Shown here piece after piece: positions 12,528 through 57,316 of a DNA stretch of 64,000 nucleotides. The notes under the pieces were generated by a model that worked only from the letters and a program-made list of their open reading frames with translations, was not told where the DNA came from and did no database searches. Both the position numbers and the translations under genes were made by a program. The stretch is from Octopus vulgaris (lineage: Eukaryota): positions 164,672,001 to 164,736,000 of the forward strand of contig OX597816.1 in assembly GCA_951406725.2 (NCBI GenBank). Reading direction: 5' to 3'. Numbering within the stretch: position 1 is the first letter of the stretch; every line of letters begins with the position of its first letter.

Positions 12528-12610
<83 letters not shown>

Positions 12611-12616
<6 letters not shown>

Positions 12617-13453
12617 CATATATTTTATTTATTACACTATTGTATGACTGAGCGCCTTCGCGTCGATTCGATTCGATTCGTTCCGTTTCGTTTCTTCTTC
12701 TTCTCCCAGTACAGTTTTTATATATAATTATGACGCGAAACCCTATACCTCTTTGCTTAACCTTCCCTTCTCTCCCTTTCTCTCTCTCTCTCACTCCTCC
12801 TCATCTCTCTCACAGCCGTTTGTCTTCCTCTATCTCTCTCTCTCTCTCACTCCTCATCTCTCTCACAGCCGGCCAAATACTTCCTTTTGCATGCGGCCTT
12901 CTAACTGTAAACACACGGTTTTCTTGCGCTCCTTGAATCTCTCCTCGTCTAGGCAAAAAAGGCCCTCTTTGGTTGTTTTCTTGTGTGTTTTTATTTCTTG
13001 TATTGTATTTTTTTGTAATTGTATTTTTATTTTGTATTTTATTTTGTATTTTATTTTGTAATTTTATTTGTATCGTTTTTACGTCCTGTTTGTGTCACAT
13101 TTTGTTATTTCCTTGTTTTTACCCCTCTGCGAAGTAATTTCCTTTAATTTCTTCGCAGGAAGGGCTAGTTCGACGAGTCGTGTTCTGTCCTCACCTTCGA
13201 AACACGCTGGAGTTGAACTAGGGACAGCTGATGAAGGGGATTTTTCCTTGTGTAGTTTGTCTAGTACTCTGTTTTTTCTTTGTAAAAAAAAGGTTCGTTC
13301 CATGCTTGTTTTTACGTTCTCGTTGAGTTCTGCGTCTATTTGTGGTGTCCTGTACTCACGTATATATATTTATATATGCATGTATATATACATGTAGATG
13401 TAGGTACGTACATATATGTATATATGTATGCATATATTTTATTTATTACACTA

Positions 13454-13454
<1 letters not shown>
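12611..13454 (+). mobile_element. Non-coding ribozyme-bearing element with 30 bp terminal direct repeat, inserted in (TA)n
   Basis: tgtatgcatatattttatttattacactat at 12611 and 13425 (814 bp period); CT-rich body, permuted HHR at 13122, tail shared with 37.3, 37.5, 44.7 and 46.8 kb. Confidence 0.7.
13122..13239 (+). ncRNA. Non-circularly permuted hammerhead ribozyme, complete copy
   Basis: Closing CCCCU/AGGGG; hairpin CUGCGAAG/CUUCGCAG; II GAAGG/CCUUC; P0 CUAGUUC/GAACUAG; III CGUGU/ACACG; GUU site (cut after 13184); I CUGUCC/GGACAG; GAAA 13199-13202; CUGAUGA 13228-13234. Confidence 0.8.
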
Positions 13455-13511
<57 letters not shown>

Positions 13512-15828: not shown

Positions 15829-16813
15829 AGTCCTCTTGTTCCACCACCCATACATTTTTTATGGAGCGAATTTTACTCACAAAGTTTTCATCAATCCGAG
15901 GTTATTACGCAGTGGGAGCGAACCCGGAACCACATAATTAGCACTGGGCACAACCCATCGCCCATCTTTATACCCAATGACGACCACGTAAACAGTCAAA
16001 TATTAGGAAGTCCGTACGTCATAAACCACTCCTCGGTCCCTGCATGGCCAAAACATTTTAAATCTCAACGACCAAGTCCTCTTGTTCCACCACCCATACA
16101 TTTTTTATGGAGCGAATTTTACTCACAAAGTTTTCATCAATCCGAGGTTATTACGCAGTGGGAGCGAACCCGGAACCACATAATTAGCACTGGGCACAAC
16201 CCATCGCCCATCTTTATACCCAATGACGACCACGTAAGCAGTCAAATAGTAGGAAGTCCGTACGTCATAAACCACTCCTCGGTCCCTGCATGGCCAAAAC
16301 ATTTTAAATCTCAACGACCAAGTCCTCTTGTTCCACCACCCATACATTTTTTATGGAGCGAATTTTACTCACAAAGTTTTCATCAATCCGAGGTTATTAC
16401 GCAGTGGGAGCGAACCCGGAACCACATAATTAGCACTGGGCACAACCCATCGCCCATCTTTATACCCAATGACGACCACGTAAGCAGTCAAATAGTAGGA
16501 AGTCCGTACGTCATAAACCACTCCTCGGTCCCTGCATGGCCAAAACATTTTAAATCTCAACGACCAAGTCCTCTTGTTCCACCACCCATACATTTTTTTA
16601 TGGAGCGAATTTTACTCACAAAGTTTTCATCAATCCGAGGTTATTACGCAGTGGGAGCGAACTCGGAACCACATGATTAGCACTGGGCACAAGACATCGC
16701 CCATCTTTGCACCCAATGACGATCACGTAAGTAGTCAAGTAGTAGGAAGTCCGTACGTCATAAACCACTCCTCGGTCCCTGCATGGCCAAAACATTTAAA
16801 ATCTCAACGACCA
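15829..16813. repeat. 246 bp tandem repeat, 4 copies
   Basis: agtcctcttgttccaccacc recurs at 15829, 16075, 16321 and 16567; units nearly identical. Confidence 0.95.
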
Positions 16814-26035: not shown

Positions 26036-26385
26036 AACGATAAGAATATATAAGTCAGTGTTTCTCAATTTTTACCCTTGTGTAACCCTTAAAATAAATT
26101 GCATGCCTCAAGGAACCTCTGCACAAGAAAAAAAATTATATACCATATTTTTCTCATTTTTTTCCATTGTAGTTCATGTGGTAAATATCATATCATATAT
26201 ATAGTTAGAATTTTCAATATATATATATATATATTTGTTGAAATGGAAAAATGAATTTTCTTGTTACGGATTATTCAAAAGTTTAACCGATACCTGGGTA
26301 GCAAAAATCACAGCAGAAAAAACACGGTTGGAGATAAGACCATATGGTGTTGCAACCGTGCGTTGGTGCGGATAATTGAAGTTTA

Positions 26386-26803
26386 ATATAATTAGTGAAT
26401 GGAAGAAATGGAGTTGAACGAAGATTGTACAGAATTCCTTTTATTACATTCTACACATGTTTCAAAGGCCACAATTTTCCAAATTCTGATTAAATAAGGA
26501 TACCATATTGCAGCTTTCTCTTCAGGAAAAACCAGGAATTACGTTGATTTCAACGTACATTGATAAACAGTTTACCCATGGGCTCTTAAGGAGCGTCCTC
26601 GTTCGAATTGCTTTGCTGCGCCTCTGTTTTGTTTTGTTCTGACAACGTAATTCCTGGTTTTTCCTGAAGAGAAAGCTGCAATATGGTATCCTTATTTAAT
26701 CAGAATTTGGAAAATTGTGGCCTTTGAAACATGTGTAGAATGTAATAAAAGGAATTCTGTACAATCTTCGTTCAACTCCATTTCTTCCATTCACTAATTA
26801 TAT
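26386..26803. repeat. 161 bp perfect inverted repeat with 96 bp spacer, one HHR per arm
   Basis: Arms 26386-26546 and 26643-26803 are reverse complements; right arm runs into (TA)n. Confidence 0.9.
26661..26740 (+). ncRNA. Type I hammerhead with long helix II and palindromic helix III (mirror copy 26449-26528, minus)
   Basis: UUC-CUGAAGA-G-AAAGCUGCAAU..AUUGUGGCCUUU-GAAA-CAUGUG-UA-GAA; helix I only 3 bp. Confidence 0.6.
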
Positions 26804-26902
26804 ATATATATATATATATATATAGGTAAACAGTAAAAATAATTACAGACATGGACAAGAACATGAAACGCCACAGAGACGACACAAGAACCACAGGACG
26901 GG

Positions 26903-27049
26903 ACATTCGAAGCCCTCAGTCATCAGTCAAGAACCAGATCATCTTAGCAATTTCGGCTGATTAATCTTGAGATTGCTCCGATATGGGCAGCCCGCCAAGG
27001 AAAATCTAAGCCAAGTGCATTAGATCCCCTGGAAGAAAGCTTCGAATGT
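26903..27049 (-). ncRNA. Non-circularly permuted hammerhead ribozyme, complete copy (second subfamily)
   Basis: 15 bp closing helix; hairpin; II GGCUG/CAGCC; P0 CCAUAUC/GAUCUGG; III AGCAAU/AUUGCU; AUC site; I UCAAGA/UCUUGA; CUGAUGA at 26926-26920; lies in (TA)n-flanked element 26824-27520. Confidence 0.8.
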
Positions 27050-27516
27050 ATACAACACGAGGACGGAAAACGAACGAAGTACACGAACAAAAATACAGAA
27101 TACGTGACAACAATAAGAATACAAAAACGTAAAAACAATAACGGTAAAAATAAAGTATAAAAAATAAACAACAAAACACAACCAGGACGTAGGACAAGGG
27201 TCTTTCGACAGGACGAATTGAGTATGGGGCTGGCTTATGAAGTTGTGCCTAATGGCCACAGGGAGACGAACAAGTACGTGTTGCTTCAGCGGCTGCTGGA
27301 ACGAAAAGAGCGCTCAACAGCGGCTAGCGGTCACGTGAGAACAAAAGACAAGAGAAAGGGACAGATGAAAAGAGAGAGAAGGTGGACGAGGGAGGAGAAG
27401 AAAGAGACAGATCGAGGGGGCTGGAGGTGAGAGAGATAGAGAAACGTAGAAGGGGGGGGGGGAAGACGGATGGAGAGGGAAAGAAAGGAGGGGGAATAAG
27501 GGAGGAGAGAGAGAGA

Positions 27517-27599
<83 letters not shown>

Positions 27600-35740: not shown

Positions 35741-35800
35741 AAATACAAAATGGGACAACAAAACATCCAGATAGACGATACAAAGAAAGCAAGGACGGGT

Positions 35801-35943
35801 CATTCGAAGTTTTCTTTCCTCAGTCAAGTACCAGATTATCTTCGCCATTTCGGCTGATTATACTTGAGATTGCTCCAATCTGGCCAGTCCCAAGGGAAAA
35901 CTAAGCTAAGAGCATTAGATTCCTTGGAAGAAAGCAGCGAATG
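35801..35943 (-). ncRNA. Non-circularly permuted hammerhead, complete with mismatches
   Basis: Closing UUUCUU/AAGAAA; hairpin CCAAGG/CCUUGG; II GACUG/CAGCC; P0 CCAGAUU/AAUCUGG; III AGCAAU/AUGGCG; AUC site; I UCAAGUA/UACUUGA; CUGAGGA. Confidence 0.75.
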
Positions 35944-37119: not shown

Positions 37120-37185
<66 letters not shown>

Positions 37186-37219
37186 TGGAGAAGAGAAAAC
37201 AACGCGTGTGTTCGGTCAT

Positions 37220-37600
37220 ATAATAACAATATAATAAATAAAACATATGCATATATACATACATATATGTACATATTTACATCTACATGTATATATATAT
37301 GCATATATGAGTACAGGATACCACAAATAAACGTAGAACACAACGAGAAACGAAAACATATAATCAAACAAGGAAACGGGCTTCTTTTAACAACGAAAAA
37401 ACAGAGTACAGGACAAACAATACTATACAAGGAAAATTCCCCGTTTCCTTGTTTGATTTTATGTTTTCGTTTCTCGTTGTGTTCTACGTTTATTTGTGGT
37501 ATCCTGTACTCATATATGCATGAATATATATACATGTAGATGTAAGTATGTACATATATGTATGTATATATGCATATGTTTTATTTATTATATTGTTATA
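37220..37600. repeat. ~160 bp inverted repeat made from the tail of the permuted-HHR element
   Basis: 37220-37380 vs 37440-37600; homologous to the 13240-13454 tail; (TA)n on both sides. Confidence 0.85.
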
Positions 37601-37652
37601 TATATATATATATATATATATATTGATGTTTGTTCTCTAATCAAAATATATA

Positions 37653-38024: not shown

Positions 38025-38086
<62 letters not shown>

Positions 38087-38143
38087 CAGCCGAAATCTGC
38101 GATGAGGGATCAGTTTCTGACTGAAGAATGAAGGCTTTGAATG
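38087..38143 (+). ncRNA. 3' half of permuted hammerhead
   Basis: CAGCC-GAAA..CUGAAGA..GAAGGCUUUGAAUG; homologous to the 26.9 and 35.8 kb copies; truncated at (TA)n. Confidence 0.6.
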
Positions 38144-38200
38144 ACCCGTTTGTCTTTTTGTTCGTCCCTTCGTGTATTTCACGTTATTTATTTATGTAAA

Positions 38201-40144: not shown

Positions 40145-40190
40145 GACACCTGATGAAGGCTGGAGGGTATATCAACCGAAACGTTGTGCT
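40145..40190 (+). ncRNA. Minimal type I hammerhead
   Basis: GACAC-CUGAUGA-A-GGCUG..CAACC-GAAA-CG-UU-GUGCU; homologue of 57962-58007. Confidence 0.6.
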
Positions 40191-43981: not shown

Positions 43982-44819
43982 AAAATCGGTAACGAAAACA
44001 GGTCAATGAAAACAAACAGGAAGGGCTACTAAGATAGATAGATAGATAGATAGATAGATACGAGCAAAACGCCCCCCCACTGTCTAATGGACGTTGCTGA
44101 GTTGGCAAACATTTAAACAAAATTTTCTCAAAACAACTTGTCCGACCGTCTCATTTTATGACATTATTTCAAGCCAACCGGCTTTTTTTTTGCGCAGACT
44201 GTACGTTCTTTTTTCTCGCGTACGCGTAGTATCGATCGCAACAGCTGACGTACTTGCGAGTACAAAAGCACGTTCCCACGGCTTTATCGATCGCATTCTC
44301 ACCTGGAACCCATTTCTGTAATATTTTCAAAACTTATACACGCCTTGATACCGTCGGTATCTACATATCAGATTTGAGCGCAATCGGATGGAGGATGCCC
44401 GAGATCCTAGAAGACAGACAGACAGACAGAACAGATTTTATATAATAGATATACATATACACGAGCGATATTAGAGATGTATATTTAAACAGCATTAAGC
44501 AGTCATTTTATACAGATGTAAACACAATTTATAGGGTTGCCTGTACTTAAATGGTGAGGTATGTAGGTGTGCATGCGTTTCTACATTTGTATATATGCGT
44601 ATGCATGCGGGCATATATGTATGCATGTAATGTATGTATGTATATGTATCTATGTATGCATGTAATGTATGTATGTGTATCTATGTATGTGTGTATATAT
44701 ACACACATACATTGTCTTGTACTCTGTTTTTTCGTTGTTAAAAAAAGTCCTGTTTCCTTGTTTGTTTTCGTTTCTCGTTGTGTTCTACGTTTATTTGTGG
44801 TGTCCTGTACTCATATATG

Positions 44820-48260: not shown

Positions 48261-48613
48261 ATGGTGGTGGTGGTGGTGGTAATTGTAGTGGATGTGATAG
48301 TCGTGGTAATAGCGATGGCGACAGTACTAGTTACCGATGGCTGTGACAATTTGTTTTTTTATCTATTCTGTTATTCTGGAATCCGAATTTGAGACTCATA
48401 AACGAAGAAGAAAACCCGGAAACTGTTATGTATACCATGTTGTTGAGAGATGACAAGATATCTTAATCTAAAACTTATATTGTCATGACGTGACAAGATA
48501 TTTATTCTGAATGTCTGAAGGAAAGAAAAATAGCTGAAGATTTGGAACAGAATTCTTCTCAAGTAAACAAATATATATTATTTCGGCTAGAAATAATATA
48601 AAAAAAAAAGATT

Positions 48614-48696
48614 TAGCACGAGTGGGGTTCGAACCCACGCGGACATTCGTCCATTGGAACTTAAGTCCAACGCCTTAACCACTCGGCCATCGTGCT
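48614..48696 (-). tRNA. tRNA-Leu-TAA: tRNA-Leu (anticodon UAA)
   Basis: 83 nt cloverleaf: AGCACGA/TCGTGCT acceptor, TTGGA-CTTAAGT-TCCAA anticodon arm, long variable arm, GGTTCGAACC, followed by a T9 terminator. Confidence 0.96.
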
Positions 48697-48819
48697 GCTG
48701 TCTGCCAAGCGGCGAAATAAGTAGTTTTGTTCTGTGATAGCTAAAGATTTGGAACAGAATTCTTCTCAAGTAAACAAATATATATTATTTCGGCTAGAAA
48801 AAATTTTAAAAAAATGACT

Positions 48820-48902
48820 TAGCACGAGTGGGGTTCGAACCCACGCGGACATTCGTCCATTGGAACTTAAGTCCAACGCCTTAACCACTCGGCCATCGTG
48901 CT
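48820..48902 (-). tRNA. tRNA-Leu-TAA: tRNA-Leu (anticodon UAA), identical second copy
   Basis: Identical 83 nt sequence followed by a T7 terminator. Confidence 0.96.
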
Positions 48903-49464
48903 GCTGTCTGCCAAGCGGCGAAATAAGTAGTTTTGTTCTGTGACTGTTGCTGATCAGCCACAGTCACATGGTGTAACGTTTATCAGGTTAAGTGTTGCTG
49001 CTTGAAACTAACGTGTATGGGGCAAGAAACACAAGTTGTTGAATCGATGCCAAAACATAACTGGTATTTATTTTTTTTCAAAATAAATTGGAACGTGGAA
49101 TAGACTGTAAATTAGTACAATCGTTGGCATACCTACACAAATGGGCCCCATCTCCTCAACTTTTATACTTTCCTCATAACTATATGAAAAGTGGGTGTTT
49201 TGTGAATGAAATTTTCTACAAGTCTTTTTCAGAGGGTGTAGAATCCGATTATATCAGAATTTAATGGGGGAAGTGGGGATGTAAGCATGTACACATATAT
49301 TATAGGTGCAGTAGTGATTGTGTGGTAAGAAGTTCGCTTCCCAACCACATGGTTCCGGGTTCAGTCCCACTGCGTGGCCCCTTGAACAAGTGTCTTCTCT
49401 GACAGCCTCGGGCCAACTAATGCCTTGTGAATGGATTTAGTAGGCGGAAACTGAAAGAAGCCCA

Positions 49465-49934: not shown

Positions 49935-50342
49935 TACTCTTTTACTCTTTTACTTGTTTCAGTCATTTGACTGTGGCCATGCTGGAGCACCGCCTTTAAT
50001 CGAGCAACTCGACCCCGGGACTTATTCTTTTTGTAAGCCCAGTACTTATTCTATCGGTCTCTTTTGCCGAACCGCTAAGTAACGGGGACATAAACACACC
50101 AGCATCGGTTGTCAAGCAATGCTAGGGGGACAAACACAGACACACATACACACACACGCTTATATATATATACATATATACGACGGGCTTCTTTCAGTTT
50201 CCGTCTACCAAATCCACTCACAAGGCTTTGGTCGGCCCGAAGCTATAGTAGAAGACACTTGCCCAAGGTGCCACGCAGTGGGACTGAACCCGGAACCATG
50301 TGGTTGGTAAACAAGCTACTTACCACACAGCCACTCCTGCGA
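49935..50342 (-). mobile_element. SINE family A, full length
   Basis: Reverse complement of family A. Confidence 0.85.
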
Positions 50343-50344
50343 CA

Positions 50345-51720
50345 CACACACACCTCCCGTTTCAGTAAAGTCATGGAGCGCATTGTGAGGAAAAGACTGA
50401 TTGAGTTCCTTGCGGACAATTACCTGCTTTCTGACACCCAGGAAGGAGCCCGGGAAGGAGCTGTCTTACACAGCTTCTTTGACACTATGGCCGAATCAAT
50501 TAATGAACTGCTCAAAATGTGGATGTGGTATAACCTCGACTTTGCGAAGGCACTTGACAAGATCGACCATGGAATGATATACCACAAAATACGGGGACTC
50601 GGCATCACCGGTAACGTCGGAGAGTGGCTGCATGATTTCCTAAAGGACAGGACCCAAACTGTAGCAGCCAACGGAGCTCTCTCCACAGAGACACCAATAG
50701 TGAGTGGAGTACCCCAGAGCATTGTGCTGGGGCCACTGCTTTTCGTGGTAGCCCTATCGGTTATGCCATCAGTGACAGAGGCAGCCATGCTTACCAGCTA
50801 TGCCGACGACACAGAAGTCGCACAGTCAGTCAAGGAAACCTCTGATGCTACGCTCTTGCAGAAAGATCTAGATACATGGGCTGATGATAACAACATGCAA
50901 TTTAATGCAAGTAAATTCCAGGCCCTCCGCTACCAGTTAAGCACTGCTCAGGAATCACGACATCAGTACATTGGACCATGTGAAGCAACGATCCCAGCAT
51001 CAAATACGGTCCTTGATCTTGGAACAGAAATGAGCAACAATGCCCCATTTCACACACATATCAACAAAAATGATAGCAGTATCCAGAAGACTGGTCGGTT
51101 GAATTCTGAGAACCTTCTGGACGAGGGACCAAGAAGCTATGATGTCACTATGGAAGTCATTTATCCTCAACCGACTGGACTACTGCTCTTAGCTATGGTC
51201 ACCTTATACTATAAGGATGATAGCAGAGCTTGAAGCAGTCCAGCGACATTACACATAGAAAATTGCATCAATGGAACGACTGAGCTACTGGGACCGATTG
51301 AAAGAGCTACGACTCTTTTCCCCGGAAGGAAGGCGGGAGAGGGATGTAGTGATATATATATGGAAGATACTGGAAGGCCTGGTACCAAACTTTGGAATAA
51401 AGAGCTATACAAGACCACGAACAGGACGTCACTGTGCTGTCTCCACTGCTTCATCTCGGGCAAGGACGATGTACTGCAATAGCTTGGTTTCAAGGGCCCA
51501 CAGCTGCTTAACTGTCTGCCGAAACATCTGAGGAGCCTCCATGGAGTGGGTGTAGACGTTTTCAAACACGAACTTGACCTCTGGCTCATCGAGATCCCAG
51601 ATGAGCCAATATTTAGGCAGGAAACTGAAAAGAGGGCAGTAACTTCGAACTCCTACCTTCACCAAAAGCCGCTCCGACAAAGGCGAAGGCGGTGCTCCAG
51701 CACGGCCACATAAAAAAATA
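50345..51720 (+). mobile_element. 5'-truncated CR1/L2-group LINE (RT domain, frameshifted)
   Basis: DFAKALDKIDH, SGVPQSIVLGPLLF, YADDT, WADDNNMQFNASK, LSYWDRLKELRLFS.E.RRER; A-rich 3' end. Confidence 0.9.
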
Positions 51721-57049: not shown

Positions 57050-57250
57050 TACACAGAAAAGAAACAAGGAGAGAAACAAGGAGAGAAAAAATGTGTGTAG
57101 GAGCTAACGGTCTATCATGGCGTATATACATATATATGTATATACATATGCATATATGGGTACAGGACGAATACGAAAACATGGAATACGAAGGTTTTTT
57201 GCGAACAACGAAAGAGACAAATGGGGAACAAGACAAGTAACACAAAGAAC

Positions 57251-57296
57251 GACCCTTCATCAATTGTCGACTGTTTTATCTACTCCGCATTTTGAG
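57251..57296 (-). ncRNA. Decayed 3' half of permuted hammerhead
   Basis: CUC-AAAA-UGCG..CGACAA-UUGAUGA-AGGGUC; tail homologous to 49.7 and 43.8 kb. Confidence 0.45.
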
Positions 57297-57316
57297 TAAT
57301 TACGATACACACACAC

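Follow-up and report, generated by a model that had tools for sequence, protein, structure and literature searches.

A high-copy, protein-free element of Octopus vulgaris, probably carried by Penelope-like enzymes and predicted to contain a hammerhead ribozyme opened within its core

The window, i.e. the whole stretch analysed here, was the 64,000 nt of Octopus vulgaris contig OX597816.1 (assembly GCA_951406725.2) from 164,672,001 to 164,736,000, and the element at 12611-13454 in it was identified as one copy of a repeated family, designated family A. The explanation which we favour, and consider fairly probable, is that this high-copy, protein-free family borrows the reverse transcriptase (RT) and endonuclease of Penelope-like elements (PLEs), and that its RNA would contain a hammerhead opened inside the catalytic core. 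The element is a variant of animal retrozymes or of non-autonomous PLEs, and the ribozyme is the part of it that deserves most attention.

The window copy was a 1.04-unit copy (1.04-mer) of family A, with an exact direct repeat of 36 nt at its ends (12605-12640 = 13419-13454, period 814, leading TA letters included) and AT and TA runs on its flanks. A terminally redundant unit of 814 nt between (TA)n tracts, without credible open reading frame, had been described in a first-pass annotation of this DNA, and this description held; the 30-bp repeat given there is the core of the 36-nt repeat. The parts of the element were as follows.

12532-12611, no strand: left part of the (AT)n target microsatellite, an AT run
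12605-12640, plus: 5' overlap, the final 36 nt of the preceding unit, exact repeat
12641-13454, plus: 814-nt non-coding unit of family A, 38% GC and 44% U
12641-12716, plus: optional "tail" segment, its end at ~12716 being the second 3' end of family A (compare PMC11167929)
13359-13432, plus: long AT-rich palindromic hairpin just 5' of the main 3' end (minimum-energy fold)
13419-13454, plus: 3' copy of the repeat, with 13454 as the main fixed 3' end of family A
13455-13508, no strand: right part of the (TA)n target microsatellite, a TA run

The exact head-to-tail junction motif occurred 556 times in the genome and the tail motif 408 times, with no occurrence of the reversed controls, so the repeat is element sequence. 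In the window copy it is a chance 5' truncation overlap, neither a long terminal repeat (LTR) nor a target duplication; the overlap was longer, shorter or missing in other copies, which start at many other positions. A target-site duplication was unreadable at the window copy, since both flanks are (TA)n. The longest open frame inside the element was 137 aa and of low complexity (26 stop-to-stop frames of at least 30 aa), and none of the five longer frames scanned reached the Pfam cut-off. Neither a poly(A) tail nor a tRNA or Rfam head was found in the element, and Rfam at gathering and E-value thresholds gave no hammerhead match, only matches of the TA palindrome to microRNA families, far below cut-off.

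The ribozyme region gave 1592 candidate matches in the genome, of which the 40 scored were 98-100% identical. Ninety tail-anchored loci, from the first 100 of the 408 listed, were mapped, and 89 were kept after one was dropped as the second unit of the same array. Their 3' ends were at site 1 (=13454) in 46 copies and at site 2, ~76 nt into the next unit, in 36 (classed as 37, with one row that reads on reclassified by hand), while one read on and six lay elsewhere; thus 82/89 copies ended at two fixed sites, and a TA run adjoined 42 of the 46 site-1 ends. We infer that ~12716 is a start site of reverse transcription. The 5' ends were scattered over more than one unit length, and an inverted part stood at the 5' end in 8/90 loci. 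The copies thus combined 3' ends fixed at internal sites and an optional tail with 5' truncation at variable points; partial tandems, inverted 5' parts and a (TA)n microsatellite as target were seen as well. Starts at two internal sites, a tail that may be missing, partial tandem copies, inversion on the 5' side and insertion into (TA)n are reported for PLEs (PMC11167929; PMC8557442; both cited, like all papers here, for the accessible part of their text). Since 3' ends that are fixed next to (TA)n, 5' starts that vary and inverted 5' parts make up the PLE footprint, the element is likely a non-autonomous PLE passenger of the animal retrozyme type, brought into TA repeats by enzymes of Penelope type; the retrozyme side of it is the low GC and the tandem of non-coding units, each with one hammerhead. 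The first-pass annotation had proposed a retrozyme-like element copied from circular or multimeric RNA by a PLE RT. The non-coding, retrozyme-like nature, the PLE-type insertion and copying from a circle or from a template exceeding one unit were upheld, a circle in particular being a possibility. Head-to-tail junctions, on which that proposal depended, do exist in DNA, but the copies are not free circular permutations, only the 5' ends being variable.

Two further insertions of the window belong to this comparison.

37182-37616, no strand: older relative, a head-to-head pair of tail fragments, with the second 3' site as the end of the minus copy and the main 3' site as that of the plus copy
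26826-27520, minus: copy of a sister family, family B, with a 780-nt unit of different sequence and the same ribozyme wiring at ~26915-26992

The minus relative (37182-37470, 75% identical) stops at the second 3' site, where (TA)n follows, and is fused head-to-head to the plus tail fragment 37471-37616; it runs from the tail homologue into a body-start homologue, as had been noticed earlier at 37.2 kb. The family B copy was very young. The family B tail had 358 exact matches in the genome, with arrays of up to six units (L367); 85 loci were taken, seven redundant array units were dropped to leave 78 insertions (two ran off the fetched stretch), and 75 of the 78 ended within 2 nt of one site, again with a (TA)n target. 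Two older related groups were designated A' and C.

All hammerhead core words were present in a non-canonical order, namely the cut triplet GTT (13182-13184), GAAA (13199-13202) and CTGATGA (13228-13234). The order scan gave the blocks as S, G, C, and none of the type I, II and III orders (CGS, GSC, SCG) was found by it; a motif scan gave two such motifs in the window and none in 30 shuffled windows. The core consensus (CUGAnGA, GAAA, UH) was complete, and the core words were invariant in 34 aligned copies of three groups. Six helices were predicted, all fully paired in the window copy.

13122-13126, plus: splint helix, 5' strand, pairing with 13235-13239 (5/5 Watson-Crick)
13127-13158, plus: hairpin formed by 13127-13134 and 13151-13158 (8/8 Watson-Crick), with predicted stacking on the splint, running directly into stem II
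13159-13163, plus: stem II, 5' strand, G10.1 = 13159, pairing with 13194-13198 (5/5 Watson-Crick)
13165-13221, plus: outer helix P, 13165-13174 with 13212-13221 (9 Watson-Crick and 1 GU), by which stems I and II are predicted to be joined at their distal ends
13179-13190, plus: block S, with stem III 5' strand 13179-13183, predicted cut after 13184 (GUU) and stem I 3' strand 13185-13190
13194-13206, plus: block G, with stem II 3' strand, GAAA and stem III 3' strand
13222-13239, plus: stem I 5' strand 13222-13227, CTGATGA core 13228-13234 and splint 3' strand 13235-13239

Judged from its sequence, the ribozyme is not of type I and is probably not of strict type SGC. The predicted fold would be derived from the SGC/CSG class by circular permutation, with its opening between A9 and G10.1 and the splint as the closing element. 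Its strands would follow one another as stem II 5' strand, block S, block G, stem I 5' strand with CUGAUGA, and splint, so A9 and G10.1 would not be covalently adjacent but would be held at the junction of two stacked helices. A bulge is reported to be tolerated between positions 9 and 10.1 (PMC4209133; PMC1636495).

The partner of the five bases before GAAA, which make one strand of stem II, was compared in 99 distinct block sets: a perfect partner was found upstream in 74 and downstream in none, and the upstream one, lying 20-26 nt before the cut, was better in 91 sets and worse in 3. In a hand-chosen alignment of 25 rows, three of the five upstream stem II pairs changed on both sides between families, all to Watson-Crick pairs. 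Stems I and III differed in sequence yet remained complementary across A, A', B and C. Covariation was thus seen for stems I, II and III, though the five groups are related, so few independent events are involved. In the alignment of 34 segments, hand-chosen from 74, the S block of family C was set two columns off, by which stems I and III were undercounted, so block-anchored tables were used. By co-folding, the bases right after CUGAnGA paired with a farther-upstream strand stacked on the hairpin leading to stem II, and among 14 copies whose flanks were co-folded this splint was clear in A, A', B and two of the three C copies. Strict type SGC, the first reading, was downgraded after the comparisons of stem II partner, co-folding and covariation, and a register placing G8/A9 in stem II was rejected on the 34-copy alignment.

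Canonical type I hammerheads of PLE style were also observed at 40150 and 57967 (plus strand), with a stem II sequence resembling that of family B. There is a hint in the sequences that the permuted form arose by reshuffling of tandem type I motifs.

A cut is predicted after 13184, and the start points of genomic copies suggest that it takes place. In family A (n=89), the 40 nt behind the predicted cut held 20 of the 5' ends and the preceding 80 nt held 3 (P 4e-6, nominal), the stop rate per 100 nt at risk was 0.83 behind and 0.08 before, and five ends lay within 3 nt of the cut against 0.5 expected. The corresponding counts around the cut in family B were 15 and 5 of 78 (P 9e-4). By hand correction, L233 was recognized as an internal deletion and L283 as starting on the cut base. 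Read-through of the cut site was found in 48/89 family A copies (one row hand-corrected), some of which span two ribozymes (L021/L022). About half of the copies thus extend across the cut, so the templates include uncut multimers or circles.

The GIY-YIG search, in which 150 of 6136 candidates were scored and 14 + 17 loci fetched, revealed many intact RT/GIY-YIG frames of 753-782 aa with a C-terminal endonuclease in the genome, which are probably Neptune-like PLEs. Among them were two young, autonomous families whose frames, of 753 and 781 aa, were intact (L412-L424; L073-L075); in a third young PLE family (L332, L333), which is C-rich, the tail held a minimal type I hammerhead. In the 753-aa family, which ends at (TA)n, the minimal type I motif had a U3-A8 pair. 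One A' dimer, which counts in favour of the PLE route, was fused base-to-base and head-to-head to a 5'-truncated RT/GIY-YIG PLE of the kind with a C-terminal endonuclease (L059/L107, C9 at ~53.35 Mb), possibly as one insertion from two different RNA templates. PLE fragments near L154, L306, L124, L231 and L242 were considered as joint insertions and rejected, being ~60-700 nt away from the element.

In the 3' ends of the octopus Naiad consensus sequences (Naiad_Ovul and Naiad_Obim) the strands were seen by eye to follow in this order too, and stems I, II and III were each complementary. In the supplement of Craig et al. 2021 (PMC8557442), as far as it is accessible, the 3' end of Naiad_Ovul is marked "HHR_half_core" and Naiad_Obim is unmarked. 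Relatives of the Naiad tail numbered 1134 candidates in the genome, some of them downstream of decayed RT frames, and the order, again with complementary stems, was read by eye in such relatives as well. With the published Naiad tail of octopus counted in, the wiring is kept, with compensatory changes, in five sequence groups. We infer that the wiring is common to Naiads and that movement at present goes through other PLE enzymes in trans, the one junction described above being the basis for this.

Under the favoured explanation, multimeric RNA would be transcribed from tandem loci, and the ribozyme would cut part of the multimers after 13184 to give unit-length RNA, which may be circularised. 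A PLE protein would nick a (TA)n tract, and target-primed reverse transcription would start at 13454 or ~12716. The complementary DNA made on cut RNA would stop at or just before the cut end, while on an uncut multimer or a circle it would pass one unit and leave a terminal overlap such as the 36 nt seen here. For the joint claim, i.e. an active hammerhead outside the six published block orders, with its core open between A9 and G10.1 and a helical splint as closure, present in an animal genome in thousands of copies from several non-autonomous PLE passengers and also in Naiads, cutting in the germline, with 0.8-kb circular or unit RNAs used by PLE RTs, we would give an even chance.

Several observations weigh against the favoured explanation. 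With regard to the fold, the pseudoknotted form is not the minimum-energy structure (z -0.37), the cut triplet of the window copy is GUU, presumably a weak one, and by co-folding the splint was weaker in the Naiad tail, where its register varied, and was missing from one C copy, which is truncated; in addition, the search for a stem II partner covered 28 positions upstream and 6 downstream, among loci enriched by design. With regard to cutting, the 40- and 80-nt windows were picked after the data had been seen, BLAST-called 5' ends of family B fell on the 3 nt at the cut in 0/78 cases (one after hand correction), and contigs of 8/24 runs covered parts of the unit, though none is on record as RNA and contigs are blind to ends, strand and circles. 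With regard to the enzyme, a tail common to A or B was found in none of the PLE loci fetched from the top-scored candidates, and an autonomous PLE sharing the tail, which the earlier annotation had suggested looking for, was not seen among them, the wiring alone being common to Naiad tails. The intact PLEs examined carried minimal type I motifs or none that was recognised, and close Naiad matches (150 of 3097 candidates scored) were all broken, with open frames of at most 292 aa.

A plain type SGC fold could instead be the active one, with stem II formed by 13195-13198 and 13236-13239 behind a bulged A; the element and its PLE route would be the same, and the upstream strand and splint would be an alternative, perhaps inactive conformation. 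The S-G-C order with a linker of ~3-4 nt is like that of HRIMA-1 (Eckert 2023, PMC10085705), a bulged base between 9 and 10.1 is reported to be kept in PLE hammerheads (PMC4209133), and both stem II pairings are mutually exchangeable in family A. The downstream stem II was paired in 99/100 cells of A, A' and C, which also counts against the permuted wiring, but 49 of the 100 cells were GU, and a change on both sides was seen in only one of four pairs, mostly to GU. A stem II strand directly after CUGAnGA, possible with GU in A, A' and C, was not so in B, where a 5-nt insertion would be required, nor in the Naiad tail, where it gave ~2 pairs by eye; with no perfect downstream partner in any of the 99 sets set against 74 upstream, this fold is considered unlikely. 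That the hammerhead is an inactive relic, with uncut tandem transcripts copied and the 5' pile-up caused by polymerase stalling in a stable structure, is in our judgement quite improbable. The read-through of about half of the copies agrees with it, as does the report that ribozyme mutants of a PLE were without effect on insertion in vitro (PMC11167929), and stalling of the RT in the stable fold could add to the excess of 5' ends; the family B ends, too, were spread over 635-669 and not on one base. However, invariant core words and covarying stems would not be expected of a relic, and the tenfold fall of the stop rate came immediately upstream of the scissile bond, a point that lies within the structure and away from its 3' edge.

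Within the favoured explanation, a true ~814-nt circular RNA, cut and ligated, might be copied by rolling-circle reverse transcription. The read-through copies, some over two ribozymes, would fit such a template, and animal retrozymes are reported to form circles (PMC7229834). In the six-unit family B array the five full units differed by 0-2/780 nt without gaps, whereas eight family B units from other loci differed from the array by 6-14 changes and 3-5 gaps; such near-identity within the array would be expected from rolling-circle copying or from local amplification. Most tandem neighbours were nevertheless no closer than unrelated copies, with 0-17 changes per 300 nt in family B (10 pairs, mean 4.9, vs 4.0 between loci) and 0-25 per ~120 nt in family A (8 pairs, mean 5.8, vs 3.8 between loci), although some of the high values may be segmenting errors. 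The 814-nt unit as a circle was U-rich and only about half paired, unlike the compact, self-paired circles of retrozymes, and the PLE tested in vitro used uncut RNA (PMC11167929). A circular template is possible from the sequence data, and we consider this sub-case less probable than not. An insertion of the type of short or long interspersed nuclear elements (SINEs, LINEs) with a target-site duplication of 30-36 nt, or a repeat made at the DNA level, would account for the direct repeat on both sides of the body, but the repeat is internal at 556 junctions, its overlap length varies, and the element is without poly(A) and tRNA or Rfam head, so this idea is refuted for practical purposes.

Like the animal non-LTR retrozymes, the element is non-coding and of low GC, with one hammerhead per unit, tandems from monomer to multimer and a proposed PLE origin (PMC7229834; bioRxiv 10.64898/2026.07.22.740005). 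Those are defined by type I hammerheads, while the wiring here is non-canonical and would be missed by their descriptors, and the unit is longer than the circles of 170-400 nt that experiments have shown; retrozyme units of up to 972 bp are reported in the accessible text of the same two sources. Plant LTR retrozymes have LTRs that each hold a type III hammerhead, and the element is not one of them, its repeat being 36 nt, variable and without ribozyme. PLEs share with the element the partial tandems of pseudo-LTR type, inverted 5'-truncated parts, (TA)n targets and two internal 3' ends with an optional tail (PMC8557442; PMC11167929). Unlike them, the element is without open reading frame, its 3' ends are ~76 nt apart against a PLE tail of 30-40 nt, and no sequence link to an intact autonomous family was found among the loci fetched. 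Naiads are autonomous and are reported, in the part of PMC8557442 available, without canonical hammerheads; their stem sequences differ from family A, and their copies in this genome are decayed.

The type SGC and CSG hammerheads of Eckert et al. 2023 (PMC10085705) are alike in the cyclic block order, the crossing of stems I-III, the short linker between stem I and stem II, the extra helix tying stems I and II, and the full core consensus. In the accessible text of that paper CUGAnGA is assumed to be inseparable from its stem II strand, whereas here the block appears to be split and splinted; the examples there, for which cutting was demonstrated, were taken from metatranscriptomes and metagenomes and not from the genomes of known organisms, whereas the one here is genomic and predicted from sequence. 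This wiring was not found described in the literature searched; most subscription papers, and the supplements of the Eckert and bioRxiv papers, lay outside the search and may bear on novelty. Environmental sequence is the only source from which types SGC and CSG are reported there, and the assumption behind the six permutations would be broken by a high-copy example in a genome in which the core block is split. It would also explain the "half core" marks on Naiad elements and, if true, would mean that a class is missed by descriptor-based surveys of ribozymes and retrozymes. The many copies are, in addition, a natural record of PLE target-primed insertion, with two start sites, inversions and stops at the cut.

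Further observations were made on the families and on the window. At the 5' end of the six-unit B array (L040, C13), ~30 nt of flanking DNA was duplicated in inverted form around the (TA)n tract, and downstream of the family B copy of the window lay an inverted, hairpin-like duplication of several hundred nt (26086-26776). Older fragments resembling B, C or A were found at 35790-35920 (minus), 38085-38170 (plus), 57130-57300 (minus) and 44712-44818 (plus), and the one near 38085 starts at a TA run just 5' of its own GAAA block. A 379-aa open frame at 50094-51230 (plus) is probably a LINE RT fragment, the end of which resembles the L412 frame. Two identical tRNA-Leu(TAA) genes were carried by a 206-bp tandem on the minus strand (48530-48943), and a four-copy tandem of 246 bp with 98% identity, including SINE-like sequence, occupied 15829-16813.
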